Positions 2,647-49,271 of a stretch of 49,271 nt of DNA are shown piece after piece. Source of the stretch: Perkinsus olseni (Eukaryota). Made by a program: the position numbers and the translations under genes. The notes under the pieces were generated by a model that had not been told where the DNA came from, did no database searches, and was given only the letters and a program-made list of their open reading frames with translations. Position 1 is the stretch's first letter. Each line of letters opens with the position of its first letter. The DNA is taken from NCBI GenBank assembly GCA_013115125.1, contig JABANN010000037.1:62001-111271 (forward strand). The letters run 5' to 3'.

Positions 2647-5133
2647 TTACGCACCAGTGTTCGCAGGCGCCTCAGGTTCGGCTTCTGAACTCTGAGAATC
2701 TCCCTGCTCAATCGAGCACTTGCTGGCCACTTCCTTCTCGCCGTACTTGATCTGCTTCCGTCTCTCCCATCCAAGCCAGCCGATAATAAGGGCTGCTATG
2801 AAGAATATGATCGCAATAGCGATGAGGCCACCCATAAGACCATTGAACATGCCAGGAGCTGCTTGCTCGACCTTCATCGTATCAAGCTGGAAGGGGAACG
2901 CCTTCTGATGCTTGTTCAGCCAAAAGGACGGTATGAGGCAGTCTTGGGTCATCTCGCCGGTCTTACCATTCGCCGTAGGAGGGAATCTAACATTCATCTG
3001 CAACTTCTCCTGTCCGTTGACAAAGGCACCCGATATTGGCTCAGTCCAGACGTTGATGCGGAAGTCGCGGTCGCCTTCACAGTTAGGATCGCCGCTGCAG
3101 GAGAGGATGTTCACACGATCACCGGGATAGTAGTTTTGGGACCTCGAGGATGATCCATTGACGATATCGAAATGAGGTAGAGAGGCATAGACCGGGACCA
3201 TGACAGAGGCCGGGTCGGGGGAGGCAAAGTATCCAAGGTTGAAGCTCAGGTAAGGCGAGTCACAGTCGATACCCTGGGAGTCGTGAGGATTCGAACCATC
3301 GCAATTTTCGTTGCGGAAGTCGATGTCGGACAAAGTCCACTTGTCTACCTTGGCACCATCCCAATCAGCATCCACCTCAATGTTCTTCAGAGTCGCTGCC
3401 GAGAAGATCTGCCCCACGAACAGCCTGGCCAGGGCGTCCTTTTTGTGATACTCGTCCGTCCCCTTGCCGTTCAGAGTACCGGGGAAGAACTTGGCATCCC
3501 AACCAGCAACGTAGTTAGGAGTGCAGACGTCGTTAGCAGTACAAGTACCATCCTTCTTGAAGGAGTCCTGGGCCATACAGTCACGATCAAAGGCACAGTT
3601 CTGAGTCTGACCATTATACATCTTGAAGTAATCCAAACCCTTCCAATCCGGAATCTTACTACTACGGTACTGCTCGGTAGGGGCACCATTGATCACGGGC
3701 TTAGCAACGCCCATGGACACCGCCTGGCCGCTGAACTTGTCCGTGAAAGCCTCGTTGTCCCAACCAAGAAGCTGAGCTACTGACATCTTTATGAACCTAG
3801 GATAGAATTCATAGTCAGCATCGTAGCTTTTGCTGGAGGGATCCGTGTAGGGGAAGAGAGTGTGGCGCATAGTGTCGTAGTTGGACAGACCATAGGAGCC
3901 GGCGTAGTTCAATTGGTCGTGCCAAGCCTCGATCTCAGAGGGCTTCAGAGTCATCTCCAACACCTTCATCGCAACTACAGCACCGGTAGTATCCGTGAAG
4001 TTGGTGTTCATCATGAAATTGAAGATTTTGTTCTTGGAAGTCTCCGAGAAAGTACCATTAATTTTCTTCTCAAGGTCCACATCGGCCTGGCTATCGGGGT
4101 TGAACTTGCAGCTGTGGTTGGCGTCTTGCTTGGCCACACAACCAAAGGCGTAGGCGAAGTAGTCGATGGCCATACTGGATGGTGGTAGCATGCTGGAAAC
4201 GTCCAAACCACCCGCCAAGGGGGCCAGTTTGGTGCCCAGAGCCTGCATATTTATCTCGCCATCATCGAGCATACGAGTTAGACCAGCATCGAAGTACTGT
4301 GACTGGATGGCCGCCTCTATACTACCGAACTGGGCTTTGATGAGGTTGGACACCATTGCAGGAGCCAACTTCATCATACCCGTTACAGTTTTGGCCAATT
4401 CCTGATAGGTTCCGCAGGTCCCGAGCATCTGCAGCATCTCCATGGTACTCACAGTATGACCCATTTCAGTGATCGTACTCAGAAGGGCCAGGTTGGGGAC
4501 GATGACCTTCTGCTGTAACAGGGCAGTCTCATCCTTATCGGCGAAGACAAAGGTGTTGGTCTCATTCCAGTGAGCAATACCCTCATTGTTCCACTTGTCA
4601 ACATCAACCGAAGCTTCGATACGCTCGGAAGTCTGAGCAGCGTGGACAGGACGCAGCTCCTGCACAACAGGCTTGGCGCCGTTCTTGAGGATCTCTGCTG
4701 GGTTGGTGACGTTGAAGGCGTAGAAATCGTACGGCATACCCCTCAGGCACATATCAGGCTTCACACATCCATCCTTGGAAGCGTCACACCAACCAGATGA
4801 AGCTGCCACTGCAGCATTCGAGGGTGAACTCGACGACAAACACGTTTCCCTGGCTTCAGTCGAGTTCATAAGCCAGGCCTGATAGGCCAGTCCAGGGCAA
4901 GTAGCATCACCCACGAACATGTTAGAGCAATCGGTCGTCTGATAGGTATTGTCGATGAAGCGCATGGCATCCACTCCATTAGTGTACTGATCCTCGTAAG
5001 TGGTCTTAACCAGAATGGCAAAGATGATGGCAACAATGCAGATGGCCGCGGAGATGGCGGTGAGGATCCAGTAGACCCAAGGGTTGCACTTTATCGGGCA
5101 ACGGCCATTGCAGTTGTACCAACGTGGCTTCAT
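2647..5133 (-). CDS. CD36 / scavenger receptor class B (LIMP-like) protein, intronless, 828 aa
   Basis: N- and C-terminal TM helices flank a large ectodomain. CD36 hallmarks: FYAFNVTNPAEILKNGAKPVVQE, VPVYASLPHF and TEPISGAFVNGQEKLQMNV. Confidence 0.85.
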   Translation of the reverse strand: MKPRWYNCNGRCPIKCNPWVYWILTAISAAICIVAIIFAILVKTTYEDQYTNGVDAMRFIDNTYQTTDCSNMFVGDATCPGLAYQAWLMNSTEARETCLSSSSPSNAAVAASSGWCDASKDGCVKPDMCLRGMPYDFYAFNVTNPAEILKNGAKPVVQELRPVHAAQTSERIEASVDVDKWNNEGIAHWNETNTFVFADKDETALLQQKVIVPNLALLSTITEMGHTVSTMEMLQMLGTCGTYQELAKTVTGMMKLAPAMVSNLIKAQFGSIEAAIQSQYFDAGLTRMLDDGEINMQALGTKLAPLAGGLDVSSMLPPSSMAIDYFAYAFGCVAKQDANHSCKFNPDSQADVDLEKKINGTFSETSKNKIFNFMMNTNFTDTTGAVVAMKVLEMTLKPSEIEAWHDQLNYAGSYGLSNYDTMRHTLFPYTDPSSKSYDADYEFYPRFIKMSVAQLLGWDNEAFTDKFSGQAVSMGVAKPVINGAPTEQYRSSKIPDWKGLDYFKMYNGQTQNCAFDRDCMAQDSFKKDGTCTANDVCTPNYVAGWDAKFFPGTLNGKGTDEYHKKDALARLFVGQIFSAATLKNIEVDADWDGAKVDKWTLSDIDFRNENCDGSNPHDSQGIDCDSPYLSFNLGYFASPDPASVMVPVYASLPHFDIVNGSSSRSQNYYPGDRVNILSCSGDPNCEGDRDFRINVWTEPISGAFVNGQEKLQMNVRFPPTANGKTGEMTQDCLIPSFWLNKHQKAFPFQLDTMKVEQAAPGMFNGLMGGLIAIAIIFFIAALIIGWLGWERRKQIKYGEKEVASKCSIEQGDSQSSEAEPEAPANTGA

Positions 5134-6406: not shown

Positions 6407-8827
6407 TTACTTGGCAACAGCAGCCGCTTCTACAGACGCCGCGAGAAGCGCTTTACGCCTTCTCCAACCGAGGAAAGCGAGTATGACAGCACAGATGACT
6501 AATACTACACCGACAGCGATCAAGATCCCCATAAGAACGTTGAATAGAGTTGATCCCGACTGAATCTTCTTTACACTATCCAGTTGAAACCCGAATGCCG
6601 TCTGATGCTTGTTCAACCAGAAGGCAGGCATGAGCAGCTCTTCAGTCATTCCACCGGTCTCACCGTTGGCAGTGGGAGGGAAGGCGATGTTCAGCTGCAG
6701 CCTCTGTTGACCATTAAGCAAAGCGCCAGATATGGGCTCAGTATAGATCTCGACTGTAAAGTCTCTGGTACCCTCGCACTCAGCGTCTCCAGTACATGAT
6801 ACGATAGACACACGATCCCCAGGATGATAGTTTTCACGGGAGGATGACCCAGCCACCAAGGTGAAGTGCGGCAGCGAGGCGTAAACCGGTACGCGAGTGG
6901 TGGTCGGGTCCGGTGACGAAAAATAACCAAGGTTGAAGGTCCCACGAGGGGAGTCACAATCGATGCCTGGTGAGCCGCTACCCTCAGAACCGTCGCAGTT
7001 CTCTGTGCGGAAGTCGATATCCGCCAACGTCCACCTGTCCACCTTAACACCCCGCCAGTCGAAGTCAATCTCGACATTTTTCAGGGTTGCCGCCGAGAAT
7101 ATCTGCCCGACGAACAACCTGGCTTCAGCATTGACCTTGTGGTACTCGTCCGTCCCCTTGCCGTTCAAGGTACCAGGAATGAACTTGGCGTCCCAACCAG
7201 CAGCGTAGTTGGGAGTGCAGGCTGCGTTCGCAGTACAGGTGCGGTCCGCCTTGAATGAGTCCTGGGCCATACAGTCACGATCAAAAGCACAGTTCTGAGT
7301 CTGACCATTATACATCTTGAAGTAGTCCAAACCCTTCCAGTCCGGAATTTTACTACTACGGTACTGCTCGGTAGGGGCACCATTGATCACCGGCTTAGCA
7401 AAACCAAGGGTAATTGGCAGACCCGTGAACCTGTCCCTAAAAGCCTGATTATCCCAGCCCAGCATCTGCCCAACCGTCATCTTGATGAACCTTGGATAAA
7501 ACTCGTAGTCAGGGTCGTACGCGGGACTACTCTTATTAGTATAAGGGAACAGCGTGTTCCTCATAGTGTCATAGTTGGCCAGACCGTAAGAGCCAGCATA
7601 GTTGAGTTGAGCGATCCAAGCAGCGGCCTCAGATGGCGACAAGGAGCCTTTCTGCAAGAGTATCAGTTGCGTAGCCGCACCGGTAGTATCCGAGAAATTA
7701 GTGTCCATGATGAAGTTGAAGATGAGATCTTTAGAAGTCTCCGAGAAAGTACCATTAATTTTCTTCTCAAGGTCCACATCGGCCTGGCTATCGGGGTTGA
7801 ACTTGCAGCTGTGGTTGGCGTCTTGCTTGGCCACACAACCAAAAGCGTAGGCGAAGTAATCGATGGCCATACTGGATGGCGGTAGCATCGAAAGGTCCAG
7901 CTCGGGGACGACAATCTTCAGTTGCGGTCCAATGGCTTCCACATTGATCTCTTGGTTCCCCAAAAACCTGGTCAATCCCGCATCGAAGTACTGAGCCTTC
8001 ATCGCTGATCTTGTATCACCGAAAGTGTTATTGATAATGCCTTCTATCGCCGGGGCGGTCTTGGCCAAAGTGATGACCAGGTTGGCCAACTGTTGGTAAG
8101 TCCCGCAAAGCCCCAGCATCTGGAGAGTCTCCATAGTGTTCAGCTGCTGACCGGCCTGTGTCACAGTACTGAGTAGACCAACGTGGGGCACGATGACCTT
8201 CTGCTGTAGCAGGTTGGTCTCATCCTTATCGGCGAAGACAAAGGTGTTGGTGTCATTCCAGTGAGCAATACCCTCATTGTTCCACTTGTCAACATCAACA
8301 GAGGCTTCGATACGCTGCTGAGTCTGAGCAGCATGGACAGGACGCAGCTCCTGCACAACAGGCTTGGCGCCGTTCTTGAGGACCTCTGCTGGGTTGGTGA
8401 CGTTGAAGGCGTAAAAATCATGGGGCACGCCCCTTAGGCAAACATCAGGCTTCACGCATCCATCCTTTGAAGTATCGCACCAACCAGAGGCCGATTCCAG
8501 CGGCTTCGTCGCCGGCGTACTCGAACTGAGGCAAATATCTCTGGCGTCAGTCGAGTTCACAAGCCAGGCCTGATAGGCCAGCCCAGAGCAGGTAGCATCA
8601 CCCACGAACATGTTAGAGCAGTCAGTGGTCTGGAAGGTGTTGTCGATGAAGCGTGCTTTGTTGACACCATCAATTAGCTGGGCTTCGAATAGGGTCTTGG
8701 ACAGAATGGCGAAGACGATTGCCACTATGGCGAAGACAAGGCATACTATTGCCAAGATGAAGTACACCCAAGGGTTGCACTGAGGGGGACAGCGGCCACC
8801 ACAGGTGTACCACGCTGCTTGTTTCAT
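6407..8827 (-). CDS. CD36 / scavenger receptor class B protein, tandem paralog, intronless, 806 aa
   Basis: Same two-TM topology and motifs (FYAFNVTNPAEVLKNGAKP, PVYASLPHF, TEPISGALLNGQQRLQLNI). Colinear with 2647-5133. Confidence 0.85.
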   Translation of the reverse strand: MKQAAWYTCGGRCPPQCNPWVYFILAIVCLVFAIVAIVFAILSKTLFEAQLIDGVNKARFIDNTFQTTDCSNMFVGDATCSGLAYQAWLVNSTDARDICLSSSTPATKPLESASGWCDTSKDGCVKPDVCLRGVPHDFYAFNVTNPAEVLKNGAKPVVQELRPVHAAQTQQRIEASVDVDKWNNEGIAHWNDTNTFVFADKDETNLLQQKVIVPHVGLLSTVTQAGQQLNTMETLQMLGLCGTYQQLANLVITLAKTAPAIEGIINNTFGDTRSAMKAQYFDAGLTRFLGNQEINVEAIGPQLKIVVPELDLSMLPPSSMAIDYFAYAFGCVAKQDANHSCKFNPDSQADVDLEKKINGTFSETSKDLIFNFIMDTNFSDTTGAATQLILLQKGSLSPSEAAAWIAQLNYAGSYGLANYDTMRNTLFPYTNKSSPAYDPDYEFYPRFIKMTVGQMLGWDNQAFRDRFTGLPITLGFAKPVINGAPTEQYRSSKIPDWKGLDYFKMYNGQTQNCAFDRDCMAQDSFKADRTCTANAACTPNYAAGWDAKFIPGTLNGKGTDEYHKVNAEARLFVGQIFSAATLKNVEIDFDWRGVKVDRWTLADIDFRTENCDGSEGSGSPGIDCDSPRGTFNLGYFSSPDPTTTRVPVYASLPHFTLVAGSSSRENYHPGDRVSIVSCTGDAECEGTRDFTVEIYTEPISGALLNGQQRLQLNIAFPPTANGETGGMTEELLMPAFWLNKHQTAFGFQLDSVKKIQSGSTLFNVLMGILIAVGVVLVICAVILAFLGWRRRKALLAASVEAAAVAK

Positions 8828-35816: not shown

Positions 35817-36692
35817 TTAGCACTGGTCTTTGGACAGGCCGAGAGACATTAACCCTGCCAATGAAACATTGAGAGTATCGTTGGACTCGTCATAGGCAAT
35901 AGTCAGAGCCTGATCGAGCTGATCAGGAGTCATACCAAGTTCGTTAGCCATATCCACCATCTGGGGATCATTGTAATCAGGCTCGAAGTCCGTGCAGCCC
36001 TTCATAGTATAATCAACACCGTTGATGTTAACTAAGGGCCTCACAGTCAAGTCAAAGCTTCCATTGTCGATGGTGGCCGTACCCTTGAACATCATGTACT
36101 TTCCGCAGTACTTTCCACTAGGAGTAGCCGAACAGCTTCCACTACTGGAAGTAGTGGATGTAGAACTAGAGGGCACCGTAGTAGGAGTATCCGAAGATAC
36201 CGTAGACGGGCTCGCCGAAGGTAAGGTGGTGGATTCCGAGTACTTCCTTGTCGTCGTATCTGGAAGGGCCGTGCTAGTGGATCCATCCGAAGATCCCGTG
36301 CTTGAGCTGCTCGGAGCTAAGCTGGTAGGTAAAAAGTGTCTCCGTGTCGTCGTCTCAGAAGGGGCTGTAGTAGACTCTTCAGAAGATCCCGTAGTCGAGC
36401 TACCTGCAACTGAGGTTGTAGGGAAAAAGTGCCTCCTTGTCGTCGTAACCGAGGAAATCGTAGTGCTAGAGACGTCTGCAGGTCCAGTGGTTGTGCTCCC
36501 CATAACCGAAGCCGAAGTTGTGGACGCTTCAGTTGTAGATCCAACAGGAGATACAGTAGTGCCCTGAGCACCGGCCGTGGTAGCCACACTGGTAGAGGTG
36601 GTAGGAGCAATGGTAGTTGTCGTATCATTATCACTGCAACCAGTTAAGGACAGAGCGACGATGGCCGAAGCAATAACAGAGAAGAACTTCAT
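35817..36692 (-). CDS. secreted/surface protein: signal peptide ending LTGC, long Ser/Thr stalk, C-terminal Cys domain (family copy 1)
   Basis: MKFFSVIASAIVALSLTGC-SDND, about 165 aa mucin-like linker, then CSATPSGKYCG...C...FEPDY...SKDQC*. Intronless. Confidence 0.85.
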   Translation of the reverse strand: MKFFSVIASAIVALSLTGCSDNDTTTTIAPTTSTSVATTAGAQGTTVSPVGSTTEASTTSASVMGSTTTGPADVSSTTISSVTTTRRHFFPTTSVAGSSTTGSSEESTTAPSETTTRRHFLPTSLAPSSSSTGSSDGSTSTALPDTTTRKYSESTTLPSASPSTVSSDTPTTVPSSSTSTTSSSGSCSATPSGKYCGKYMMFKGTATIDNGSFDLTVRPLVNINGVDYTMKGCTDFEPDYNDPQMVDMANELGMTPDQLDQALTIAYDESNDTLNVSLAGLMSLGLSKDQC

Positions 36693-38509
36693 GATGATCG
36701 AATGGCGAGAGACTCGAGAAAACTAAAAGCAAAAAGATGCTGAACGGCGACTCGCTCAACGTCATATCATCTCAAGTTCAATAGGAAATTCTAAACTCCG
36801 GACTAATCGATCGTCACCTAAGGTAGGCTTCACACTTAGGCACTCACTAGCGAGCTACGCTAGAGCATAGCGCCCCACAGGTTGAGCTGGCTGGTGGTAT
36901 TCGATCTGATGAGCAATTGACGATACTTCCACTGATTTAAGAGCCTCTTAATAAGAGGTGAAGAGTAACTAGTTGACATGCTTGCTAGGACAAATTGCAC
37001 ATAGGAAGCACTACACCGTTCACCGCGCAAGTTCGTTGAGTGAGCAGGCGGTTTTTGAAACCAAGAGTAACAACGGAAACTCATGAAAAAACCCTCACGA
37101 CTCGCCTCTGCGAAGGCCTTGAGTTGCAGTGTCAAACTCAAGTGCGTATTGTCGATCTTGAATGCTCTATGTCATTCTCAAATCAAATATAGTCGATCTT
37201 GAATTGTACAAAAATAGTACTGGCAAAGTTGAGCTAGACAGTGTGAAACTTGAACCAGACGGGTTATGGGCGCGACATTGTTGAACTCTCATGGTCAAAC
37301 CTGCGTCCTCAAATATCACTTTCGAGTAGCAAAGGTGATGACCATCGCCTAATGATAAGCTGACCGAACGGGAAAAAACTAACTGGATGGGCGGACTTCT
37401 CGAGCCCTGGAGATGATGCTTGTTGTGGCACACCGGGGCGAGGCTTGTGTGACAGTCGTGGGCACAGCCCCCCGGAGGTGTAAGCGGATCCTGGAGGAGA
37501 GGAAGCTTCGCTGGTTGAATGTACCCCTGACGAAAGCTTCTTGACAATCTGTGTGATCGCACTGCACATCAACGCTACCGAGAGTCTCCAAGTGAGCACA
37601 TCTGCAAAAGTCTAACTAGGCCGGAGCCGGCGTTTGACTAAAAACTCACTCACACACTTTTACTTTTTTCAATTCTCAACGTTATTCTTGGTCACGGGTC
37701 AAGCTTTGTGGTGGAATCGTTGAGAAGGAGACAGCGTGACGTCGTGCGCAGTAGATGAAGTAGACAGATTAGCTATATTAGCCAGCGGCCCGCAATCGCG
37801 CCAAGCCAGCGCGCGGCCCCTCTTTACTTGGCCTCCCGACTCCCTATGTCGAGTTCCGAAGTTAGAACTGAGGAGAGACGACTACAAACTTGTACAGCAA
37901 ACGGTGTAGTTATGCAGCGAGTCGCTTGGATAGCAGTAGACGGACCAAACCACCCCGTTTCATTGTATTGGAGACAGCTTACACAATCGATCAATCTTGT
38001 TCCGACTCGGAACTTCCGAGGCAGTGTCCCTTGTCTAACATAGGCTAGCAGGACTACTTGGTCGATACCATTTCATCATCAATACTCAATCTTGTTGTGG
38101 TGTCTCAGATCCTTTATGCAAGTTATGCAAGACCCATGCAGAATCTGAACGGCCCACCGGGTCCACTGTGAGTCACAGTCTGCTTCACCTCAAGGATCGT
38201 CGCAACCCAAAAGGAGACAGCACCCATGTAGACGCGTGTGTCATGGGGACCGGGCGTGACCGAGGCTAGCACAATAAGTACCGCAGACGATATAGTAACT
38301 ACGAATGAGTGGGGCAGGTAAGGTTCCTGCTTCGTACCGGTATAAGTTATGCCGTATAAGCCGGCTACTCCCACGCGACGCGTACACGTGAGAACCCGTG
38401 TGGGGGGGGGCTAATTAAACTTGCTTCAAGGTCAGACCTTCATTTCGTGGAAACTGCCAACTGCGCTGCGCCTTAGAAGTGACCGACAGCGGGTGGATAT
38501 CCCTTCAGT

Positions 38510-40021
38510 ATGTCTATCTCACCCGGAGCCATGACCCCCAAAGAGCGCAGTAGAGTTACCGCTGATCTGACTCGAACTGCTACATTTCATATGCTGAAAC
38601 AGATCCCTCGCGAACTGCTCGAGCAAGACAATGAGGAGGGTCAGGCACTTAGGCAACAGTTGCTGCGTGGAGCGACTATTGCTGTGCTTTGTTCTGGCCC
38701 CAAGGACAAGAAGTCTATCTACCAGAGGGCCGCTGAGCTCGGTGTCAAGGTTGTTGTTATCGACTTCACGCACTCTTGGGGTGAGGAAATGGTTGCTGAG
38801 GGCATCATCGCCAAGTTCATTCCGATTGACTTCACCGCTGACAACGAGGTGCTCTTCCAGCAGGCTTTGGATGCTATCAAGTCGCTGGAGGAGGATCCTC
38901 TTGTTGGACCCGTCGACGGTATATGCACTTTCGTTGAGCTTGCCTTGTTCATGGCCGCCAGGCTGTGCAAGGGTCTAGGACTCCCCGGTCCCTCTGTCGA
39001 GTGCGTTGATATCGCTCGTGACAAGCACAAAACACGCGGAATAATGACGGCTAAGGGACTGCCATCCATTCGGAACTTCCTTATAACAGATCCGAATCAG
39101 CTCGAACAGGCGGCCCAACACGTCGGCTTCCCCGCTGTGCTCAAACCCATTGCTGGGGTGTCGTCACTCGGAGTACAAAAAGTATCCGACATGGACGACC
39201 TCAAACGCACATACGAAGGTCTCGTCCAGCTTCTGGCTGGTCTGAGGATGAAAGCTGGAAGGCTGGAACGGGTGGCTAAGGTTCGTACCGACTCTACCGT
39301 CTCTGAGGCGATCGAAGCTGATGGTATCAATGTTGAGCACGCCATTGCTGCCGACATGATGCTCGAGGAGTTTTTGGACGGCGACGAAGTGGATGTTGAG
39401 TGCATTTTTTGCGATGGCGAGTGCAGGTTCTGCTACGTTGTTGACAGCGGGCCAACCGTCGAACCGTACTTCACCGAAACCTGGGGTACCCTCCCTTCTC
39501 TTCTCCCCGAAGAAAAGGTTGCTGGTCTCAAGAAAATGGCTCAGGACGCTGTCGCTGCGATTGGTTTTACCCACGGAGTTTTTCATGTAGAGGGCAAGTT
39601 CACTAGCCGAGGGCCTCGCCTTATCGAGGTCAATGCCAGAATGGCAGGGGGTCTTTTCAGAACCATTTTCAGGCTCGTATATGGCGTCGACCTCGCTGTC
39701 GAGCAGCTCCTGATGACGGTTGGTATTCCCTCGAGGCCCCCAATAAAGTCGACTGGAATGTCTGCCGCCTTCGCTTCGGTTGGGGCTCCCAAATCTGGAG
39801 TCGTCGACAGCATCGAGTTTTTGGATAAGTTCCGTGACATCTCTGGGGTAGTGCAGTTGAGTGCTTACGTCAACGATGGTGAGGCCGTGATCGGCCCAGA
39901 GGATGGTATGCCGAGTTGGATTGCCAGGTTTGTCGTGTCCCTCAGTGACGTCCGTAAGGCCAAGGCTTTGGCTCAAAGACTCAGTGCGGAAATCGCTGCT
40001 GATTGTTCATATCGAATATGA
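38510..40021 (+). CDS. ATP-grasp domain ligase (carnosine synthase / L-amino acid ligase-like), intronless, 503 aa
   Basis: Motifs ARDKHKTR, GFPAVLKPIAGVSSLGV, LEEFLDGDEVDVE, GVFHVE and LIEVNARMAGG. Confidence 0.88.
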   Translation: MSISPGAMTPKERSRVTADLTRTATFHMLKQIPRELLEQDNEEGQALRQQLLRGATIAVLCSGPKDKKSIYQRAAELGVKVVVIDFTHSWGEEMVAEGIIAKFIPIDFTADNEVLFQQALDAIKSLEEDPLVGPVDGICTFVELALFMAARLCKGLGLPGPSVECVDIARDKHKTRGIMTAKGLPSIRNFLITDPNQLEQAAQHVGFPAVLKPIAGVSSLGVQKVSDMDDLKRTYEGLVQLLAGLRMKAGRLERVAKVRTDSTVSEAIEADGINVEHAIAADMMLEEFLDGDEVDVECIFCDGECRFCYVVDSGPTVEPYFTETWGTLPSLLPEEKVAGLKKMAQDAVAAIGFTHGVFHVEGKFTSRGPRLIEVNARMAGGLFRTIFRLVYGVDLAVEQLLMTVGIPSRPPIKSTGMSAAFASVGAPKSGVVDSIEFLDKFRDISGVVQLSAYVNDGEAVIGPEDGMPSWIARFVVSLSDVRKAKALAQRLSAEIAADCSYRI

Positions 40022-41400
40022 GTTTTTCTCTGCCTGACGGGCCAAGATGGCTGCGCAGCTTTTACGAACATCAAGCTTCAACAAACGTCATCTCAACGAT
40101 GGCTACATTCTCTCTTTTTTACTATTGAGAAGAGTACTTTACTATCACATTCACTTACTACTTTCTTCGGTGCGACTACAATCATTGAAGTTGCACTTAT
40201 TCCAAAAAGCTGTTGCCTTCATGTAGGTGAGTGGAGCTGCTAGTGGTGTAGTCCGGCCTAACTTCATTGTTCACCGGAGCATTGCCAAGATGACAGGTCA
40301 GCCACCATGTAAACACCCGAGCTAGGAAGGGGGCATTTTAGTGGAGGTCCTTGGCTTGCATATACCTCCCGAGAAAGCGGGCATGCTAGGAGATAAACAT
40401 CCTCTCTATATGGAACCCTCATAGAGAATGTCGACTGCTCCATCATTTGGGCAAGAGCCTCCATCTGAAGCCCTTTTGATGGGACGAGAAAATCATTCGC
40501 ACACAATAAAAACGTCCCCATAATCATCAAGAAAGCTCCCGTTTGATGCTCGTAGTGAGCCGAGCGTCCGCCTCTCATCGTGTAATCATCCAAAGGGAGT
40601 TGCCCGAACACCATTGTCCTAGGAGGATGTCATCTGTAACGGGCCTGCGGTGCTAGCTCACCTCTACGATGTGGTCATCAGGTTGGAGCGCCTCTGCTGG
40701 AAGGTCGTGATTGAAGACCCCGCTGAATGCACAAGTGACTCCTTCAACAAGTAGATAACTAGGGTAGTTATGATCGACGTCAACGCCCAGCCGCGATCCT
40801 GGCCAAGGGGGGCGGCGCATTCGGACCTCGCTGGAGCTATCCCGGCAATTTCGTCGTTCTCCTTCTACGCTAGCATGAATCCTGCAAACGATCTATTCAT
40901 AAGCACCCCAAGAACACCGTCTGAGCTGACCATGAACCATGCTCGTGCAGATAGTGCTGATCATATTGGTTTTCGTCCACCACACAGTGTGAACCAGTGG
41001 GCCATTCTTCCAGAAGACTACAACGTCAATGAGTCAACTCGGATATGGTTGACACGAGTTCCGGACACTTGCCATTAGCTATCTCAATAGAGCATCAAAA
41101 GTTCGTACTCAGCATAACGTGTAGCACTATAGGACCACCGCTGCCTCGCAAACTGTACTAGACTTTCCTATTGTCTGCAACTCCAGAACCCAGAGTAACA
41201 ACAAGGCCCCCAACGGATCTTGGTTCACGAGAATGGAGCTGTCGTCCCAACCGATACCTCTTCCACCCGCCCCTTCACAAACGCGAGACTTATGAAAGCA
41301 ATGGAAAACATATCCACGCAAACTCCCGGAGAACATACTCATCAACTACTCAACATCGTTTAGAGGTCAAAAAAACCAACACCTGTCCGGACTAAGTCCT

Positions 41401-41960
41401 TCAGCGCTGGCCCTTGGACAGGCCGAGAGACCTGAATCCTGCTGATGACATGATGAGAGTATCGCTGGACTCATCGTAGGTCATAGTCAGTCTGACTAAG
41501 TCAGACCCTGATCAATCAGGATAAGAGTCATACCAAGTTCGTTAGCCATGTCCGCCATCTGGGGATCATTGTAATCAGGCTCGAATTCCGTGCAGCCTTC
41601 ATAGTATAATCAACACCTTTTATGTTAACGAAGGGCATCACAGTCAGGTCGAAGCTTCCACTATCGATGGTGGCCTACACCCTCGAGCATGTGCTTCCCG
41701 CAACACTTTCCGCAAGGAGTAGCCGAACAGCTCCCACCGCTATTGTAAGTAGCAGATGTACTGTAGAACTAGCGGTAATCGTAGTGGAAGCACTCGCAGA
41801 TACCGTAGAAGAACTTGCCGAGGTTGAGTTAGTAGATACCAAGTAGAGTACTTGAAGTACTTCCTCTTCGTGGACCCATCCCGATCAAACCATCCAGAGA
41901 TCCCGTACTCGAGCTGCTCGGAGCTGAGATGCTAGGGAAAAGTGCCTCTTTGTGGCATGG
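41401..41960 (-). pseudogene. 5'-truncated, frameshifted copy of the LxGC surface-protein family (copy 2)
   Basis: High nucleotide similarity to 35817-36340 with indels (e.g. gtgcagccttc vs gtgcagcccttc). Terminal Cys codon changed to Arg. No signal-peptide region. Confidence 0.85.
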
Positions 41961-44730
41961 TCGAAGAGTATGAAGAAGAAGAGACGCCTCGACCTCCCGG
42001 TCTTGGATGGTTAAAAATGAGGTGTATTCTTGCGCCGCTGCGAGAAGACTTTCGGTTTCCAAGAGGCCTCAGGTCAGAGTATGGATAGGGATGCTTATCA
42101 AATCATGGCTCGATCAGTCTGTTCTCGTCAAATCCTTACGAAGAATAACGGATGAATGCAACCTCGTTACGAGGTCGTGGTATGATGACAGTTCCCCAAT
42201 CGAATGAAAGATGTACCAGTGACCGCAATTGCCGCACCAAATACGCTTCGTTGAACACGATGGGTATTACGTCCGGAAAGAGCATAGTTGACCAACCACC
42301 TTTGTAGTGGTAGCAGTAGCAGCTTTGTTGAGGTCCGAAGCACCTCGCTTGGAAGCTGAGGCTCAACGCGAGCTTCCCGATATCCACGGCCGTAAACGTA
42401 CCTACGCCGAGTGCATAGATTGGGTCTGTCGAGCCGCAATGGCCGTCGAGGGATACTGCACCTGCGACAAGCGGGAGAAGCAGGAGGCCGCTACGCTAAC
42501 CGACACTATTGAGAGGATTGACGCCCAGACCCAAACGTCACACGAGGACCATATCGGTGTTCAAGCGGCTGAGGGTTACTGAAACGGTATTTGTCTTCGA
42601 TCTACTTACTAAGTTTTTGATTCTGTGATGAAAACTATACGTAGTCCGCTGCCTAACGACTGTTTCTCGAATGGATAGTGCGTAGTGGATTACGATGAAG
42701 ATGATTATTATTATCATTATTATTATGGCATGATGAATCCTGTGGTTTCTTCTAGCATGAGGGTGGGTTGTCTTTAGAGTAAATACACAGTGTATTCGGG
42801 GGATTACACCTCGAAGTGACTTCGGGGAGCCGGATCGGAGTACACTTGCAATAGATTTACACAGCAAACTCGTGCACTGCATGCTAAACTACAGTGTAGT
42901 TACTACACTCTTTCAACTCGTACACCGTAATTTCGTACACCCTGCTAAAAAATTTTTTCTAAGTCGCGGAGCGTGATAGACGATACACCCTAGGCTAACA
43001 CCTTTAGGAAAATCTTCGGACAGAGACGCGAATTGGAATCACTAATTTACAGCTTGCGATCAGTGATAACGAGTCAGTGATGATGTTAGTTGGGCGCATT
43101 ATCCCATAATCTTCCAAGGTCATGCCTCTGCACGATCCCATAACAGACGCCACGGACGAAGAGCTGCGTAAGCGCTACCGGCTCTCTGCAGCCTCGTTGC
43201 GACAGCTGGCTAATATTCTGGAGTTGCGTGATTCTGGGAAACGCCACCATCCCATAACAAAGCTCTTGGTGGGCCTAAGATGCTTAGCGAGCGGGTGTTA
43301 TCAGCTAGGGGAGGCTGACACATTGGGGTGTTCCCAATAATACGTCTCCAGGAGTCTGGCAGAAGTGGTGGAGGCTATAGTTGTACACCGCAACTATTTC
43401 ATACGGTTTCCGAGCAACGCTACGATAGCCTCGGGGGATGCTGATGTGGATCCTCGTCTTCCAAATTGTATTGGTCTTCTTGACGGCACGCATGTATTGC
43501 TGAAGGATGTGGTGCCTAGCGCTGAAAGAGCTGACTACGTCGACTCGAAGCGCCACATATCCCTCAATGTGCAGGCATTGCTAGGAGCAGGCGGTAGATG
43601 GATATCCGTCAGTACCTCGAATGTTGGGTCGGCTCATGACGCGCGAGTTTATCAGTCTAGCCTTCTATCGAGGAGGGTGAGGACCATACCTCATGGGTAC
43701 TGGATTTGCGGTGATTCAGCGTATGGACTTGCTTCTACGCTCTACACCCCGTATGCGAACCCGCAGGCGAACTCTCCTGAGGCTGCTTTCAATGTAGCGC
43801 ACAAGAGCGTCCGTTCGGCGATCGAACGAAGGTTTCGGAAGCTCAAGCGCTCTTGGGCCATCTGCGATGGGAGGCTCCGCTTGAAACCGGTCGTGAAGTG
43901 CGCGAAGGCCGCTCTCGCTTGCTTCTGTCTTCATAACTTCCAATTGATGATGCAGGAGCCGGAGGAAGATGACGAAGAGGATGAAAGGGACAACGATGAA
44001 GACGCGGTTGGGGATAGAGGGGTGGATGTTGGAGCTGAGGCATTGCTAGGGTTGGAGAGTAGGGCTGCATATGTCGCGGCGCAATTCGCAGCGTAGTTCC
44101 ATCTTCAATATTTGATAGTGGAGTATTTTTCCTTTATGCTAGACCATGTTGAGTACCTGTTCAATTTGGTAAGGACATGCACAAGTCATCTGTTGCATGA
44201 TTAGACCCTCGGCGCGCGCTTTTGTACTTGCTCAGCCTGCGAACTCAGGTTCAGCGTGTTACACCCCTTGGGAAAAGCCCCGGTACCGGTTTTGCACGGT
44301 AAGTTGGTGTGATTCGTGGTGTGAGTTGCATTTTTGCTCAAGCTCAGAGTCCAACTCAAGACTAGACTCCCGACGTTCAGCGGCAGTGAGTTAGTAACTC
44401 AGAAATTGTCGATATTACTCATGAATCGCGAGCGTGACTCAATTGCGTGAGGTTTTACTCGATGTCGGCAGTGCTTACTCGGAGAAGGTGAGCTCGACTC
44501 AAGAGTTGAGCTCATGCAGTGAGTCGACTCGAGAGATCGAACTCTGGCTCACAACTCAGGCTATTTACTCGGTAACTCCAACTCAAGCTCCAATCTCATG
44601 CTTGAGACTCGTGAGTTCGTCCTCATACTCTCGCATTCGAACTCTGCGGCTGATTAGGCTCCAGAGGTAAACTCTTGAGGTGAGTTAACTCACGCGTGTG
44701 AGCCCGAACTCGCGATCCGCATACGGGCCC
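41961..44730 (+). mobile_element. PIF/Harbinger-type DNA transposon region (boundaries approximate)
   Basis: Contains a DDE_Tnp_4-type transposase and motif-rich flanks. The right boundary ...CCGCATACGGGCCC abuts the ATP-grasp remnant. No matching left TIR found. Confidence 0.6.
43122..44096 (+). pseudogene. Harbinger/PIF (HARBI1-like) DDE transposase with one in-frame stop
   Basis: HTH region DEELRKRYRLS...KLLVGLRCLASG, then CSQ*YVSR (TAA at 43338-43340). Continues CIGLLDGTHV, SLNVQA, GSAHDARVY, GDSAY and FNVAHKSVRSAIERRFRKLKRSW, with an acidic tail. Confidence 0.88.
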
Positions 44731-44838
44731 AGTTGGATTGCCGAGCTTCTCGTGTCCTTCAGTGACGTTCATAAGGCCAAGGCTTTGGCTCAAAAACTCA
44801 GCTCGGAAATCGCTGCTGATTGTTTATATCGAATATGA
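44731..44838 (+). pseudogene. 3' remnant (last ~35 codons) of a second ATP-grasp ligase copy
   Basis: SWIAELLVSFSDVHKAKALAQKLSSEIAADCLYRI* aligns with the end of 38510-40021, and the downstream flank is also homologous. Confidence 0.88.
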
Positions 44839-45320
44839 GAAGTTTCTGCCTACCTGATGAGCCGAAATGGCGCTTGCCTTTTGTAAACAGCAGGATTCAA
44901 CAAACGTCATCTTAACGATGGCCACATTTTCTCTTTTTTACTACTGCCGATGCGACCACCATCATTAAGGTTGCACCAATTTCAAAAAGCTGTTGCCTTC
45001 ATTCGGGTGAGTAGAGCTGGACTAGCTCAGCTAGTAGTGGTGTATTCCGCACTAAGTTCTCTATCCTGTTGACTCGAGCATCGCCAAGCAGATGACAGGT
45101 TGGACATCATCTAAACACCTAGCCAGGAGGCATTACAGTGGAGGTCATTGGCTTGGATATACCTCCCAAGCAAGCGGGCGAACTAGGAGATAAACCATCC
45201 TTTCAATATAGAACCCTCCTAGGGTATGTCTACACTGTTGACTACAGGTTCATCATCTGGGCCAAACGGCCATCAGGTTCGTCAGGGGCCATCATAGGGC
45301 CCCTAACGAACTTGCTTCAC

Positions 45321-45533
45321 GGGAATAGAACTGTCGTTCCAACCGATACCTCGTCCACCCCTCGGGAATAGAACTGACGTTCCAACCGATACCTCGTCCA
45401 CCCCTCGGGAATAGAACTGTCGTTCCAACCGATACCTCGTCCACCCCTCGGGAATAGAACTGACGTTCCAACCGATACCTCGTCCACCCCTCGGGAATAG
45501 AACTGTCGTTCCAACCGATACCTCGTCCACCCC
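45321..45533. repeat. 43-bp minisatellite, 5 copies
   Basis: Unit GGGAATAGAACTG[T/A]CGTTCCAACCGATACCTCGTCCACCCCTC starts at 45321, 45364, 45407, 45450 and 45493, with no spacers. Confidence 0.95.
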
Positions 45534-45719
45534 ACCCTTCACCAACGCGAGACTTTTGACTTAGTGCCAAATCTTTGTTGCAATTAGAACAGATTACCAA
45601 CGAATAACAGAAAGCAATAGAAAACATATTCACGCAAACTCATAGAAAACAACATACTCATAAACTACTTAACACCGTTTAGAGGTCAAAAAAGCCAACA
45701 CTCATTCAGACTACGCCCT

Positions 45720-46292
45720 TTAGCACTGGTCTTTAGAAAGGTCGAGAGAAACAACTCCCGCCATAGACATACTGAAGGTATCGTTCGACTCGTCGTAGGT
45801 AATTATCATAGCCTGTTCGAGCTGATCAGGAGTCATGCCTAGTTCTTTAGCCATATCCACCATCTGGGGATCATTGTAATCAGGCTCGAAGTCCGTGCAG
45901 CCTTTGATAGTATAATCAACACCGCTGATGTTAACTAAGGGCCTCACAGTCAAGTCGAAGCTTCCACTATCGATGGTGGCCGTACCCTTGAACATCATAT
46001 ACTTTCCGCAGTACTTCCCACTAGGAGTAGCCGAACAGCTTTCACCACTACTGGAAGTAGTAGTCGCAGAACCCGAAGACCCTGTAGTAGAATCGCCAGG
46101 AGCCGTAGTATCGGGGCGGAAAGGTCCCTCAGTTGTCGTTTCGAGAGGAGATACTGTGGTACCCTGGGCAGCACCCGTAGTGGCTACAGTAGTTGTCGTA
46201 GTAGGAGCAACAGTAGTCGTTGTATCATCATCACTGCAACCCGTCAAAGAGAGAGCGACAATAACAGAGGCAGCAATGGCGTAGAACTTCAT
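45720..46292 (-). CDS. LxGC surface-protein family copy 3 (short stalk)
   Basis: MKFYAIAASVIVALSLTGC-SDDD, Thr-rich stalk, CSATPSGKYCGKYMMFKG...SKDQC*. C-domain is nearly identical to copy 1. Confidence 0.87.
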   Translation of the reverse strand: MKFYAIAASVIVALSLTGCSDDDTTTTVAPTTTTTVATTGAAQGTTVSPLETTTEGPFRPDTTAPGDSTTGSSGSATTTSSSGESCSATPSGKYCGKYMMFKGTATIDSGSFDLTVRPLVNISGVDYTIKGCTDFEPDYNDPQMVDMAKELGMTPDQLEQAMIITYDESNDTFSMSMAGVVSLDLSKDQC

Positions 46293-47920
46293 TGTAAGGG
46301 AACACGAATTGAATTGAAAAACAGCACGTTTCAAACTGAATGTGATGAATATGAAATAGCAGACAGGCGACATGGTCCCTGCACAACCATTACATTCATC
46401 TAAAGGGAATCACACTAATTTCGTACTGGGCTCTTCAAGCGAACCCTAACCTGCGACTCACATATCTACCATGACTTCCTCTATGCTACACCATTTGTGC
46501 GTATGAGTTTACATCATGTGTAGCGCTGAGCAAGCTACGCTAGTAGCCTCCCCGTAGGACACAATAGGGGGACCCCTGGTTATCACAAGTGTGTGTCCTC
46601 GTGGTTCCCGCGCGTTTTGCTCGTTCGCCTCGATCTGAGTCAGGGGTTGCCTTGAAACTGTAGTAGAGGCTCAGTTACCGAGTCGCTATCAAGAATACTA
46701 GTGGTCCCACATCATCCGCCGATGAAGTCATGGGATCCTGTGTTTTATGAAGCTACCTTCAATTTTTAGTAGCACGGGCTGCAGCACACTACATGTATCT
46801 GAACGAGCTAGGGAGTGGAGTGGACAAGTCACTCGGCACAAATGGGCGATTGTGCGCTTCGCGAAGCATGCCACAATACGAAGTTAAATTGAAGTTGAAT
46901 TATTGAATGATGCCATTCGCGAGGTAACGTACTCTCACATCATTGTCGATCCATGCAGCGTTACTGGTGTTATCCATCCTTCACCACAAACGAGAATTAG
47001 TGTGTCTTCAGCCACTGGATCCGTCCTTTGCCGAAAAGAGGAGCTCCGCATGTGCGAGAGGTACCGTTAATGCTTGCTTGACCGATGAGAGGTTTCCCGA
47101 GACCTGGAGGGGTCTTTACAAGAGGAGCGCGAAACGCTTCTTCCTCGAGGAATTCTCTTACTGCGGAGGTCCACTGTTATGCTTGGCGAAGGATCAGGGG
47201 ACCCCTCGAGCTTCAAGAGCCGACCCTTGCGAAAAGCCCTAGGATGCGATGGCTGAAGTGAAGCTAACTAAGAGAGTCATCGCAAAGTGGCCAGTGTTTG
47301 ACGAAGGGAGAACGGGGGCGCCGAGGGCGGACTAATCAGGACTCACGAGCACAGTAAGCTGGGGGACCCGCACCCTACACACCTCCTTCTTCATCGTAGC
47401 TATTGGAGAAGACTCGAAACATTCGCACGGTCAGGCCATTTGCACGCGTACGCAGCTATGAAGGGCGAAGTGAGCAGACAAAGAATCATCCCTTGCCACT
47501 TAACGAGTGGTCACCAACCTCGAGTACGCCGTCAAGGGTAACCTCAACACAAGTTAGGAGTATATGTTTCTGGGTGACTAACTCGGTACCGCAGGGTTGG
47601 ATAGTTCGCCTCGCTTACGCGCTGAGGATGTAGCACAACGGACTGTCTCCCGCATGAGATCCAAGTTTGGGATTTCAATTGGCGAGGTGTTGGGTGTCCT
47701 CTGCACTGTGTCGTGTCAGGCGGTGAGTTATTTACGTTAGGGAAAATAGCACGTCGTAATCTTCCAAGCGTTGCCTTATTTGGAGCTCCTCGAATCGCGG
47801 TAGATACTCCGAGAGTGGATGCGGCTTGGTTGTCTGGACGGTAGGCTCATCTGGCCAGGATTCAGAGAGATCAATTCCTACGGGCATGCAAAGTCGGTAG
47901 GTTCCTTCTTTTATTCAACC

Positions 47921-48424
47921 ATGCTCTCGCCAGTAATCTTCTGCTGCGCAGTACTCGCATTATCGCTCTCCGGCTGCATCGACCAAGCAGCTATTGAGCA
48001 GGCGGCTCTGCAAGAGCAATTGTTTCTCGCACCAAACCGTGAGCACACGGATGGTTCATCCGTAGCTGGGCTCGACAGCAACTCGTCTTCGTCTCGTGAA
48101 GATACCTGTGGTCGTGAGCCGGTCGGAGTGTATTGCTTCAACTATGAAGGTCTCGTCGGGAGTGTCAACGTGAGGTCGAAGGCTTTCTCAATCAGCATAC
48201 CCTCTGGTGAGGTTATCAGCGACGTTGCCTACTACATCCACGATTGCTCCCTATTCGTGCCTGACTATAGTAACTTCCAACTCGTCGCTGCTGCCAAGAA
48301 GCTTGGCACGACCACTGCTGATTTGAATAAGGAACTCTCGATTACTTACTCAGTGCTGAATGATAGTTTCTCTGTGTCGTATCCCCCTACTACTTCTCTC
48401 AACCTCACTAGGGATCAGTGTTGA
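47921..48424 (+). CDS. LxGC surface-protein family copy 4 (divergent)
   Basis: MLSPVIFCCAVLALSLSGC-IDQ, short linker, CGREPVGVYC...C.LFVPDY...TRDQC*. Confidence 0.8.
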   Translation: MLSPVIFCCAVLALSLSGCIDQAAIEQAALQEQLFLAPNREHTDGSSVAGLDSNSSSSREDTCGREPVGVYCFNYEGLVGSVNVRSKAFSISIPSGEVISDVAYYIHDCSLFVPDYSNFQLVAAAKKLGTTTADLNKELSITYSVLNDSFSVSYPPTTSLNLTRDQC

Positions 48425-48970
48425 TTGAGGAGACAATCTTTCTTCTGGAGTAGCCTAACTGCCTACTCTCCAGAACTACTAGCCTGTGTATAATGTTCCT
48501 TCATCGAATACTTCGTTGCTACGCCACTCGATAGGCAAGCAGAAGCCAATCGTCTGTAAGGCAGTCTCCTCCAGATGCCGAATATGCTTCGCCCCTGCCT
48601 TGACAGTATCAAGAGTTGAAAGGCCCAATGTTTGAGTGAAGAGGGTTTCTGGTGTTTGGTTGATCTAGTTACTGGAATGTGAATCACACCGTGTGAACGT
48701 GATGAAGCAGGTCCTCATGGCCGAACAGGAGACATTTCACGTTGTCACAGTCTAGGAGTCTAATTGTGTCACGGAGAAGATGAAGAAAAACGTCACACTT
48801 GCTGTCGGCTGCAGTCGTATCCTAGAGTGCTAGTTCTCGCAGCGTGTCCCACTCGCGTTCATAGCGTTGATTGTAGGTATCGGGAGATTCACTTGAGTTT
48901 TCAATCGTACATCGGTACGACTGTATTGTAATGTAGTTGTTGTCGATTTTCTTTCTGATTAATTGTTCCA

Positions 48971-49271
48971 ATGTCCATGTTTTCATACACTGGACTCTTC
49001 GTCGCTCTGATCGCTCTATTCCTGGCGGGATGTTCTAGTGACAGCACCAGTACTGCTGCTCCGACCTCTGCTCCTGAGGTGGCCACGACCGGTAGCGGGA
49101 ATAATCACTTCATGGCCTCTACAACAGCTAGCGATTTTGATGACAACACCACCCCGTCGTCATACACGGAAGGGGGCGACGATTACTGCTCTGGCAAGCC
49201 CGCTGGTGAGTATTGTGGCAAGATTAATGGTGAAATGGCTCGAATCCTCATCGAGGAACACGTCTTCTATT
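48971..49271 (+). CDS. LxGC surface-protein family copy 5, partial (runs off the window end)
   Basis: Read directly: MSMFSYTGLFVALIALFLAGC-SSDSTSTAAPT...YCSGKPAGEYCGKING. Absent from the ORF track because there is no stop in the window. Confidence 0.82.
   Translation, partial: MSMFSYTGLFVALIALFLAGCSSDSTSTAAPTSAPEVATTGSGNNHFMASTTASDFDDNTTPSSYTEGGDDYCSGKPAGEYCGKINGEMARILIEEHVFY

Follow-up and report, generated by a model that had tools for sequence, protein, structure and literature searches.

A clustered Perkinsus gene family with a conserved Leu-x-Gly-Cys motif at the end of its signal peptides: candidates for tethered, stalked barrel proteins

What does a Leu-x-Gly-Cys motif, of the kind that marks bacterial lipoproteins, do at the end of the signal peptides of a eukaryotic protein family? 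Lipidation directed by a lipobox counts as a trait of prokaryotes. Our window, a 49,271-nt stretch of Perkinsus olseni genomic DNA (contig JABANN010000037.1) whose nearest named proteins also come from P. olseni, nevertheless carries five copies of a single Perkinsus-specific family whose leaders end in this way, four of them intact genes and one decayed. The reading that we favor, with a probability of roughly 0.5, is that the leader is cleaved in the endoplasmic reticulum (ER) between Gly and Cys, and that the Cys so exposed is unpaired and tethers the stalk of the mature protein through a lipid or a disulfide.

The first gene (c1; 35817..36692, minus strand) was recognized as an intact open reading frame (ORF) with a family match. 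Its 291 aa begin with a signal peptide and Cys19; a Ser/Thr-rich stalk of 167 residues, itself containing repeats, then leads to the C-terminal barrel domain. The second (c2; 45720..46292, minus strand) is an intact ORF of 190 aa whose product is identical to database protein P0001. This ORF extends 27 codons further 5', to an ATG at 46373; because the orthologues begin at MKF, we placed the start of c2 there and not at the upstream ATG. On the plus strand lie c3 (47921..48424), an intact 167-aa ORF of a divergent subfamily whose product is P0024, and c4 (48971..49271), an ORF of a fourth subfamily that the window end cuts after 100 codons. The relatives of c4 are P0027, a partial and near-identical P. 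olseni protein, and P0023, which is full-length. A further barrel-domain copy (c5; 41407..41762, minus strand), detected by tblastn in two frames and by three-frame translation, carries a frameshift and stops and is a pseudogene; three-frame translation revealed no recognizable N-terminus upstream of it.

At least two of these copies are transcribed. c2 lies within RNA-derived contigs of runs X13 (45956-46151) and X1 (depth 251), and c3 within an RNA-derived contig of X13; the depth of the c1 contig in X1 was low (~3). The raw-read RNA runs X21 and X23 had reads only at a low-complexity spot near 42.69 kb and are uninformative on the family. The X13 metatranscriptome contig over c3 starts at 47899 and has loose 5' letters, CTTGGCTCA; the 9 letters ahead of 47899 agree with the Perkinsus spliced leader at its 3' end, as given in PMC3101222. 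Contig, genome and leader sequence together place the spliced-leader AG acceptor of the c3 mRNA at 47899..47900 (plus strand). As the spliced leader joins at 47899, the codon at 47921 is the first AUG of this mRNA, and it stands directly ahead of the signal peptide. Spliceosomal introns adjoining the family genes are a further eukaryotic mRNA feature.

To describe the leaders we assembled 24 family N-termini from three species, 4 from the window and 20 from databases. The signal peptides are 18-20 residues long, with a hydrophobic core of ~14-16 residues that follows a 2-residue n-region and gives way to small residues. An earlier note on this DNA had reported that the four N-termini share an n-region, a hydrophobic core and a Cys at position 19-21, in LSLTGC, LSLTGC, LSLSGC and LFLAGC, and the ORFs bear this out. 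The signal peptides of c1 (36636..36692, minus strand), c2 (46236..46292, minus strand) and c3 (47921..47977, plus strand) occupy codons 1-19 and end at Cys19, with TTA ACT GGT TGC, TTG ACG GGT TGC and CTC TCC GGC TGC, respectively, as their last four codons; that of c4 (48971..49033, plus strand) occupies codons 1-21 and ends at Cys21 with CTG GCG GGA TGT. Of the 16 sequences in which position 2 was counted, 13 have K there and 1 has R. By inspection, all 24 N-termini have the short n-region, the core and, at -3 and -1, the small or neutral residues that characterize cleavable eukaryotic ER signal peptides. An uncut leader could act as a type II signal anchor, and it is the sole membrane-compatible segment of the protein, but a core of this length after so brief an n-region is typical of a cleaved signal peptide. 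Cores of ~14-16 residues are short for a membrane span, and we consider such an anchor very improbable.

Gly(-1) and Cys(+1) are present in 24/24 N-termini and Leu(-3) in 22; position -2 is shared among T (13), S (6), A (4) and N (1), and of the first 18 N-termini examined 17 have an A at -6. The motif is kept in the divergent copies, as the earlier note had claimed, and its proposal withstood the refuting condition on the Cys: this residue is conserved, at the amino-acid level, in each additional paralogue and orthologue with an N-terminus (24/24). The conserved stretch as a whole spans -6 to +4, more than the needs of a signal-peptidase site or of a lipobox would account for, and this width speaks against our reading.

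The Leu-x-Gly-Cys motif is clearly kept by selection at the amino-acid level. Of their first 27 codons, c1 and c2 share 11 and differ synonymously in 10 and non-synonymously in 6, and the L, G and C codons vary among the four window copies. Since the codons differ between copies, selection acts on the amino acids and not on the DNA; the synonymous differences rule out DNA-level conservation or recent gene conversion as the cause of the motif.

This pattern bears on the alternative that these are ordinary soluble secreted proteins without a tether, in which Leu-x-Gly-Cys is an ancestral signal-peptidase site and the Cys is either lost with the leader or plays a minor structural part. A signal-peptidase site may have A, S, G, C or T at -1 and any of several residues at -3, and the (-3,-1) rule allows cuts either before the Cys (L/G) or after it (T/S/A at -3, C at -1). 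No known type of anchor is present, and there are known multigene families whose leaders are strongly conserved while their mature parts vary. However, Gly and Cys are invariant although the barrels of different subfamilies share only about 30-38% identity and the hydrophobic cores of the leaders have diverged, and the synonymous turnover between copies indicates that there was time enough for change. We regard soluble secretion as rather unlikely.

Beyond the leader, the family shares a layout of a disordered, mostly Ser/Thr-rich stalk and a C-terminal eight-stranded beta-barrel of ~105 residues. AlphaFold2 modelled the 107-aa C-terminal domain of c2 (45723..46043, minus strand) at a mean pLDDT of 90.0 and a pTM of 0.77, with eight beta-strands, of which strands 5 and 6 are separated by a helix hairpin; in the full-length model of c3, residues 1-59 are disordered and residues 61-167 form the barrel. 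The domain alignment has four invariant Cys (C3, C12, C49 and C107), and the models agree with the small disulfide domain on a stalk that had been proposed. The description of the linker as mostly Ser/Thr-rich was right for c1 (55% Ser/Thr, with 4 Cys beyond Cys19) and wrong for c3, in which the linker begins Gln/Ala/Glu-rich and contains 21% Ser/Thr (19-21% in its subfamily). A stalk is no proof of anchoring, as mucin-like regions are common among soluble secreted proteins. The stalk also holds a conserved F-[LM]-x-P island, which resembles algal transit-peptide motifs; members with one island have it 16-39 residues past the Cys, and c1 has it at 70 and 101. We dropped the idea of a plastid-targeting leader because of these distances past the Cys and because, in c3, acidic residues stand between the two.

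Other means of attachment were sought along the family proteins. There is neither a membrane span after the leader (the top 19-residue Kyte-Doolittle mean is 1.03) nor, as the earlier note had stated, a GPI signal at the C-termini, which are polar (…KDQC and similar). The four domain Cys allow two disulfides; therefore, the N-terminal Cys is predicted to be unpaired in the subfamilies with four domain Cys. In subfamily B, which has 5 or 7 Cys beyond the N-terminal one, these counts would allow an intramolecular pairing of the N-terminal Cys.

From these features we infer the following course of events for cleavage and tethering. The products of these nuclear Perkinsus genes would enter the secretory pathway, directed into the ER by the signal peptide, and the ER signal peptidase complex would cut between the invariant Gly and Cys. 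Cleavage is placed here because Leu(-3) and Gly(-1) fit the signal-peptidase rule. The Cys would then be the first residue of the mature protein and dispensable for the barrel disulfides; a Cys exposed at the N-terminus would be as well suited to a disulfide as to a lipid. Through this Cys the base of the disordered, probably O-glycosylated stalk would be attached covalently to the cell surface or wall, so that the proteins would be surface-located with the barrel displayed at the stalk's distal end. For the attachment itself, we give an acyl or other lipid group and an intermolecular disulfide roughly equal odds.

Where might such a family have come from? In phmmer and word-indexed searches it was found only in P. 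olseni, P. marinus and P. chesapeaki. In both P. chesapeaki (FOL47_007818-007822) and P. marinus the subfamilies share a contig, and therefore the cluster is older than these species. Searching 1.84 billion representatives with phmmer returned 13 matches: 10 family members and 3 long repetitive proteins outside the family. When the first 45 residues were used as a query against longer proteins, in search of the same leader on other domains, only 3 family members were recovered. In the ESM Atlas the domain gave no informative cluster and the N-terminal 45 residues no usable match. No Pfam family reached its threshold in any member, and weak matches to 'New_glue' and 'Mucin' were compositional. 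Sequence matches in the PDB to polyubiquitin chains were weak and summed, with no single stretch passing, and were treated as spurious.

Foldseek found no match in the PDB at E ≤0.001. The best VIA-align match of the predicted barrel was an amine dehydrogenase domain (1pby, Z 8.0), and the many at 6-7 included the bacterial surface lipoproteins 3lhn (Z 6.9), TP0435 (Z 6.7) and fHbp (Z 6.7-6.9), although a Z below 8 may reflect merely a common arrangement and this band is usual for unrelated barrels. The fHbp C-terminal barrel (2w81, 9mrj), Shewanella 3lhn and Treponema TP0435 (4u3q) superpose over 82-89 residues at an rmsd of 3.1-3.4, but their sequence identity to the family is 11-13%, at a Z usual for unrelated barrels. 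Fatty-acid-binding proteins score similarly (Z 5.9-6.3).

If an ancestor of Perkinsus acquired the family from bacteria, as a gene for a barrel lipoprotein with its lipobox, this would accord with the bacterial-lipoprotein layout, with the barrel resemblance at Z 6-7 and with the coding regions, which are single ORFs. Yet neither phmmer over the 1.84 billion proteins nor the domain profile found a bacterial sequence relative, the sole bacterial matches being repetitive proteins that share one short strand motif. The G+C content of the family equals that of the adjoining DNA, and the barrel resemblance is possibly just the common arrangement seen at Z < 8. We judge this origin unlikely. A bacterial origin would be compatible with a tether, a lipobox, soluble secretion and a signal anchor alike.

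The lipobox itself deserves closer attention. The consensus [LVI][ASTVI][GAS]C, as quoted in PMC12462473, is matched at the leader end by 21 of the 24 N-termini; the misfits are P0015, a truncated model with M at -3, P0016, which has F at that position, and P0019, which has N at -2. A window-wide scan for ORFs that start with ATG, span 80 aa or more and have a hydrophobic N-terminus gave 10 entries, of which 5, all from the four genes, had a lipobox-like end and the other 5 had none. That Perkinsus reads Leu-x-Gly-Cys as a genuine lipobox, and lipidates the N-terminal Cys within the secretory pathway, strikes us as rather doubtful. The full pathway, in which the Cys thiol is lipidated first and a lipoprotein-type peptidase then cuts ahead of the Cys, we hold to be a minority possibility and decidedly unlikely; its enzymes would be laterally acquired Lgt/LspA or unrelated ones as in archaea.

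Several features speak for such a pathway. Besides the fit to the consensus and the invariant Gly-Cys, the conservation of Leu(-3) and of a small residue at -2 is stricter than signal peptidase I would demand, and the layout is that of a bacterial lipoprotein, with a short leader, a scant polar c-region, Ser at +2, a tether and an eight-stranded barrel. Several bacterial surface lipoproteins are also among the best fold matches, but they fall within the Z range common for unrelated barrels. Against the pathway, PMC9943842 states that LspA is absent from eukaryotes. The Pfam attachment-site model LPAM_1 (PF08139) matched 2 of 25 members at E up to 10, the best, the weak match of c4, with 13.3 bits against a cut-off of 20. 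Neither c3 nor c4 has a Lys or Arg in the n-region ahead of the hydrophobic core.

Bacterial lipoproteins (Lgt, LspA, Lnt) and the Perkinsus proteins are alike in their 18-20-residue leader ending in L-[TSA]-G-C with Ser/Thr at +2, and in the disordered tether that precedes a small globular domain without another anchor. They differ in that the Perkinsus family, known from sequence, consists of eukaryotic nuclear genes with spliced-leader mRNAs, shows no sequence homology to them and includes two subfamilies without a charged n-region. The archaeal AliA/AliB lipobox proteins of Haloferax volcanii offer a precedent for a lipobox without Lgt/LspA homologues (PMC12462473, PMC13631571), and their lipidation shows that Lgt-unrelated enzymes suffice, according to PMC12462473. 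It has been demonstrated experimentally in the archaeon, whereas in Perkinsus it is a hypothesis drawn by analogy. In the literature we found nothing that links Perkinsus with a lipobox and no mention of the P. marinus family locus tags; among the papers listed, those on lipoprotein enzymes did not mention Perkinsus, and those on wall proteins, the secretome, protists and Lgt, and the chloroplast contained nothing on the family. The alveolate papers listed did not use the word lipobox, and in the eukaryote-related papers examined it was applied only to bacteria.

Eukaryotic systems provide two further comparisons for a tethered stalk. In Hedgehog and Spitz, signal-peptidase cleavage in the ER exposes an N-terminal Cys, which the MBOAT enzymes HHAT and Rasp then palmitoylate in the lumen; to our knowledge, this route is the only well-known one to an N-terminal lipid on a secreted eukaryotic protein. 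It belongs, however, to a metazoan signalling system, and the residues after the Cys differ, being acidic or Ser-rich in Perkinsus. The mucin-like stalked surface glycoproteins of parasites are GPI-anchored. They resemble the Perkinsus proteins in a Thr-rich and probably O-glycosylated stalk, a multigene cluster and a conserved leader, but in Perkinsus the stalk is N-terminal and the C-terminus is polar, with no GPI signal.

Gal and GalNAc are exposed on the surface of the parasite, which is as far as PMC7053492 goes; speculatively, the family may be counted among the candidates for the glycosylated surface that host galectins recognize. If Leu-x-Gly-Cys does direct lipidation, these would be the first lipobox lipoproteins of any eukaryote, and would represent a third route of protist surface anchoring besides GPI and membrane spans. 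An expressed family without another anchor, in a parasite that can be cultured and transfected, makes the question of lipidation directly testable. If the Cys is not lipidated, the family would be a well-defined, genus-specific set of stalked barrel proteins; if it is, it may offer a handle on the surface of an important pathogen of molluscan shellfish.

ORF analysis of the right-hand 13.5 kb of the window, where the family genes cluster, recovered the four reading frames whose N-termini the earlier note had described: c1 (35817-36692, minus strand, 291 aa), c2 (45720-46292, minus strand, 190 aa), c3 (47921-48424, plus strand, 167 aa) and c4 (48971-49270, plus strand, cut by the window end). 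The c2 sequence is identical to one unnamed database protein. A fifth copy, c5 (41407-41762, minus strand), is by its sequence a decayed pseudogene: it matches the C-terminal domain of the family in two frames, with stops in it, and no N-terminus is recognisable. Within the cluster, c5 has as its neighbour part of a DDE_Tnp_4 (PIF/Harbinger-type) transposase ORF (43365-44096, plus strand, E 2.5e-27), and family copies also flank a gene for an ATP-grasp enzyme of 503 aa (38510-40021, plus strand) whose C-terminal domain is L-amino-acid-ligase-like. Elsewhere in the window, a tandem pair of paralogous ORFs (2647-5133, 828 aa, and 6407-8827, 806 aa; both minus strand) matches the CD36 family (E 4e-19 and 2e-22), each ORF with hydrophobic segments at its two ends.

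These family members are genuine genes of a eukaryote, and they are expressed. In a metatranscriptome run, X13, contigs covered all of c3 and parts of c2; in contigs of X1, a second RNA-derived run, from which introns had been removed, depth was ~250 for c2 and c3, ~9 for c4 and ~3 for c1. A relative of the ATP-grasp gene (38 differences in 384 bases) was very abundant in X1, at a contig depth of ~3100. The X13 contig for c3 begins at 47899, where the genome has an AG acceptor (47899-47900), and the nine letters in front of it are identical to the end of PmaSL1, a published spliced leader of Perkinsus (PMC3101222). The first AUG of the c3 mRNA is therefore at 47921. The raw ORF thereby loses 34 codons at its upstream end, and the protein begins directly with the signal peptide. 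In c2 there is a further in-frame ATG, 27 codons upstream; orthologues begin with MKF, and we infer the same start for c2. The head-to-head c2 and c3 are joined by one X1 contig that lacks three short introns of the spacer (47101-47803), one with minus-strand splice ends (47101-47160) and two with plus-strand ends (47353-47435 and 47584-47803); this suggests either upstream transcripts that overlap or long 5' leaders, on both strands.

We collected 25 family sequences from databases in addition to the four in the window. Five without a usual leader were set aside: P0008, P0013 and P0029 are partial, and the starts of P0012 and P0018 are different or truncated. (P0018, which is related to c4 and comes from P. 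olseni, has a Cys-rich module of ~45 residues, present twice, instead of the usual leader and stalk start; either its architecture differs or its gene model is wrong.) All 24 remaining N-termini have Gly at -1 and Cys at +1; several of them are alleles or close orthologues, so the independent evidence comes from some five subfamilies across three species. The observation of the earlier note is confirmed, and its proposal survived the one refuting check that was run, loss of the Cys in more paralogues; as to lipid anchoring itself the data are neutral. Leu occupied -3 in 22 of the 24 (M and F once each), position -2 was T in 13, S in 6, A in 4 and N in 1, and 21 fitted the canonical bacterial lipobox, in a tally that was not blind, sites being anchored by the expression [GAS]-C-[STI]-[SDN]; this expression always placed the site where the hydrophobic core ends. 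Conservation extends from position -6, which is Ala in 17 of the first 18 sequences, as far as about +4. Codons for L, G and C differ among the four window copies, and the first 27 codons of c1 and c2 show 10 synonymous and 6 non-synonymous differences; it is thus the peptide rather than the DNA that is constrained.

In form, the leader resembles a cleavable ER signal peptide. Under the classical (-3,-1) signal-peptidase rule, Leu at -3 and Gly at -1 are acceptable, and a cut in front of the Cys would therefore require no bacterial enzyme. Plain soluble secretion, with L-x-G-C merely an inherited cleavage site, would fit this, but is weakened by the invariance of the motif and seems doubtful: G-C and Leu(-3) are retained across diverged subfamilies more strictly than the rule demands. 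The simplest reading of these leaders is that the Cys must be the first mature residue, the cut falling between Gly and Cys. In favour of a genuine lipobox pathway in Perkinsus are the textbook form of the leader and the precedent of archaea, where the motif can be recognised by enzymes with no relation to Lgt (PMC12462473); against it, LspA is reported to be absent from eukaryotes (PMC9943842), as are lipobox proteins (PMC12462473), and we consider such a pathway improbable.

The Cys is followed by a stalk of 34-167 residues that is disordered in the AlphaFold2 model. Ser and Thr make up 37-56% of the stalk in most members; in the c3 subfamily the figure is 19-21%. In almost every member the stalk contains a single conserved hydrophobic island, F-[LM]-x-P-T or F-x-P-x-T, which falls in the same column of the family alignment A1 in all subfamilies (c3 48023-48037, plus strand; c2 46107-46121, minus strand). 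It was present in 15 of the 16 members listed, the exception being database protein P0004, which lacks the Phe; in most members it holds the only Phe of the stalk, and in c1 it occurs twice, within repeats. The island, which is not docked onto the barrel in the AlphaFold2 model, may serve for processing or for recognition.

For the C-terminal ~105 residues AlphaFold2 gives a confident fold (pLDDT 90) of eight strands, the fifth and sixth separated by a helix hairpin, and four Cys are invariant in the domain alignment. Foldseek gave no significant match to the predicted domain. The best VIA-align hit was the barrel domain of an amine dehydrogenase (Z 8.0), followed at Z 6-7, where values below 8 are common for unrelated folds, by a broad set including bacterial surface lipoprotein barrels (3lhn, TP0435, fHbp, LbpB, NHBA) and fatty-acid-binding proteins. 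As modelled, the domain is an eight-stranded barrel, nothing more. No membrane span or GPI-type tail was found downstream of the leader. The four domain Cys would form two probable disulfides, leaving the N-terminal Cys spare in most subfamilies. Because it is spare, sits at the stalk base and belongs to a protein with no other anchor, we put at about one in two the probability that the N-terminal Cys is a covalent tether, through lipid or disulfide.

An exhaustive phmmer search with the C-terminal domain against 1.84 billion representatives returned 13 matches, of which 10 were family members and three were long repetitive non-family proteins matched at one strand-like motif; a profile search with the domain found 20 proteins, all from Perkinsus. 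Named relatives, from P. olseni, P. marinus and P. chesapeaki, are all 'hypothetical' proteins. No Pfam family scored above its threshold for family members, and the PDB held no sequence relative. A bacterial origin of the family, a side question, has no sequence support. Five consecutive P. chesapeaki genes (FOL47_007818-007822) are family members of different subfamilies, and three members share a single P. marinus contig; the cluster is therefore older than these species. The literature searched did not mention these genes or any Perkinsus lipobox. The family thus comprises undescribed, genus-specific stalked barrel proteins with a lipobox-like and unusually conserved leader, and it merits a modest experimental test.
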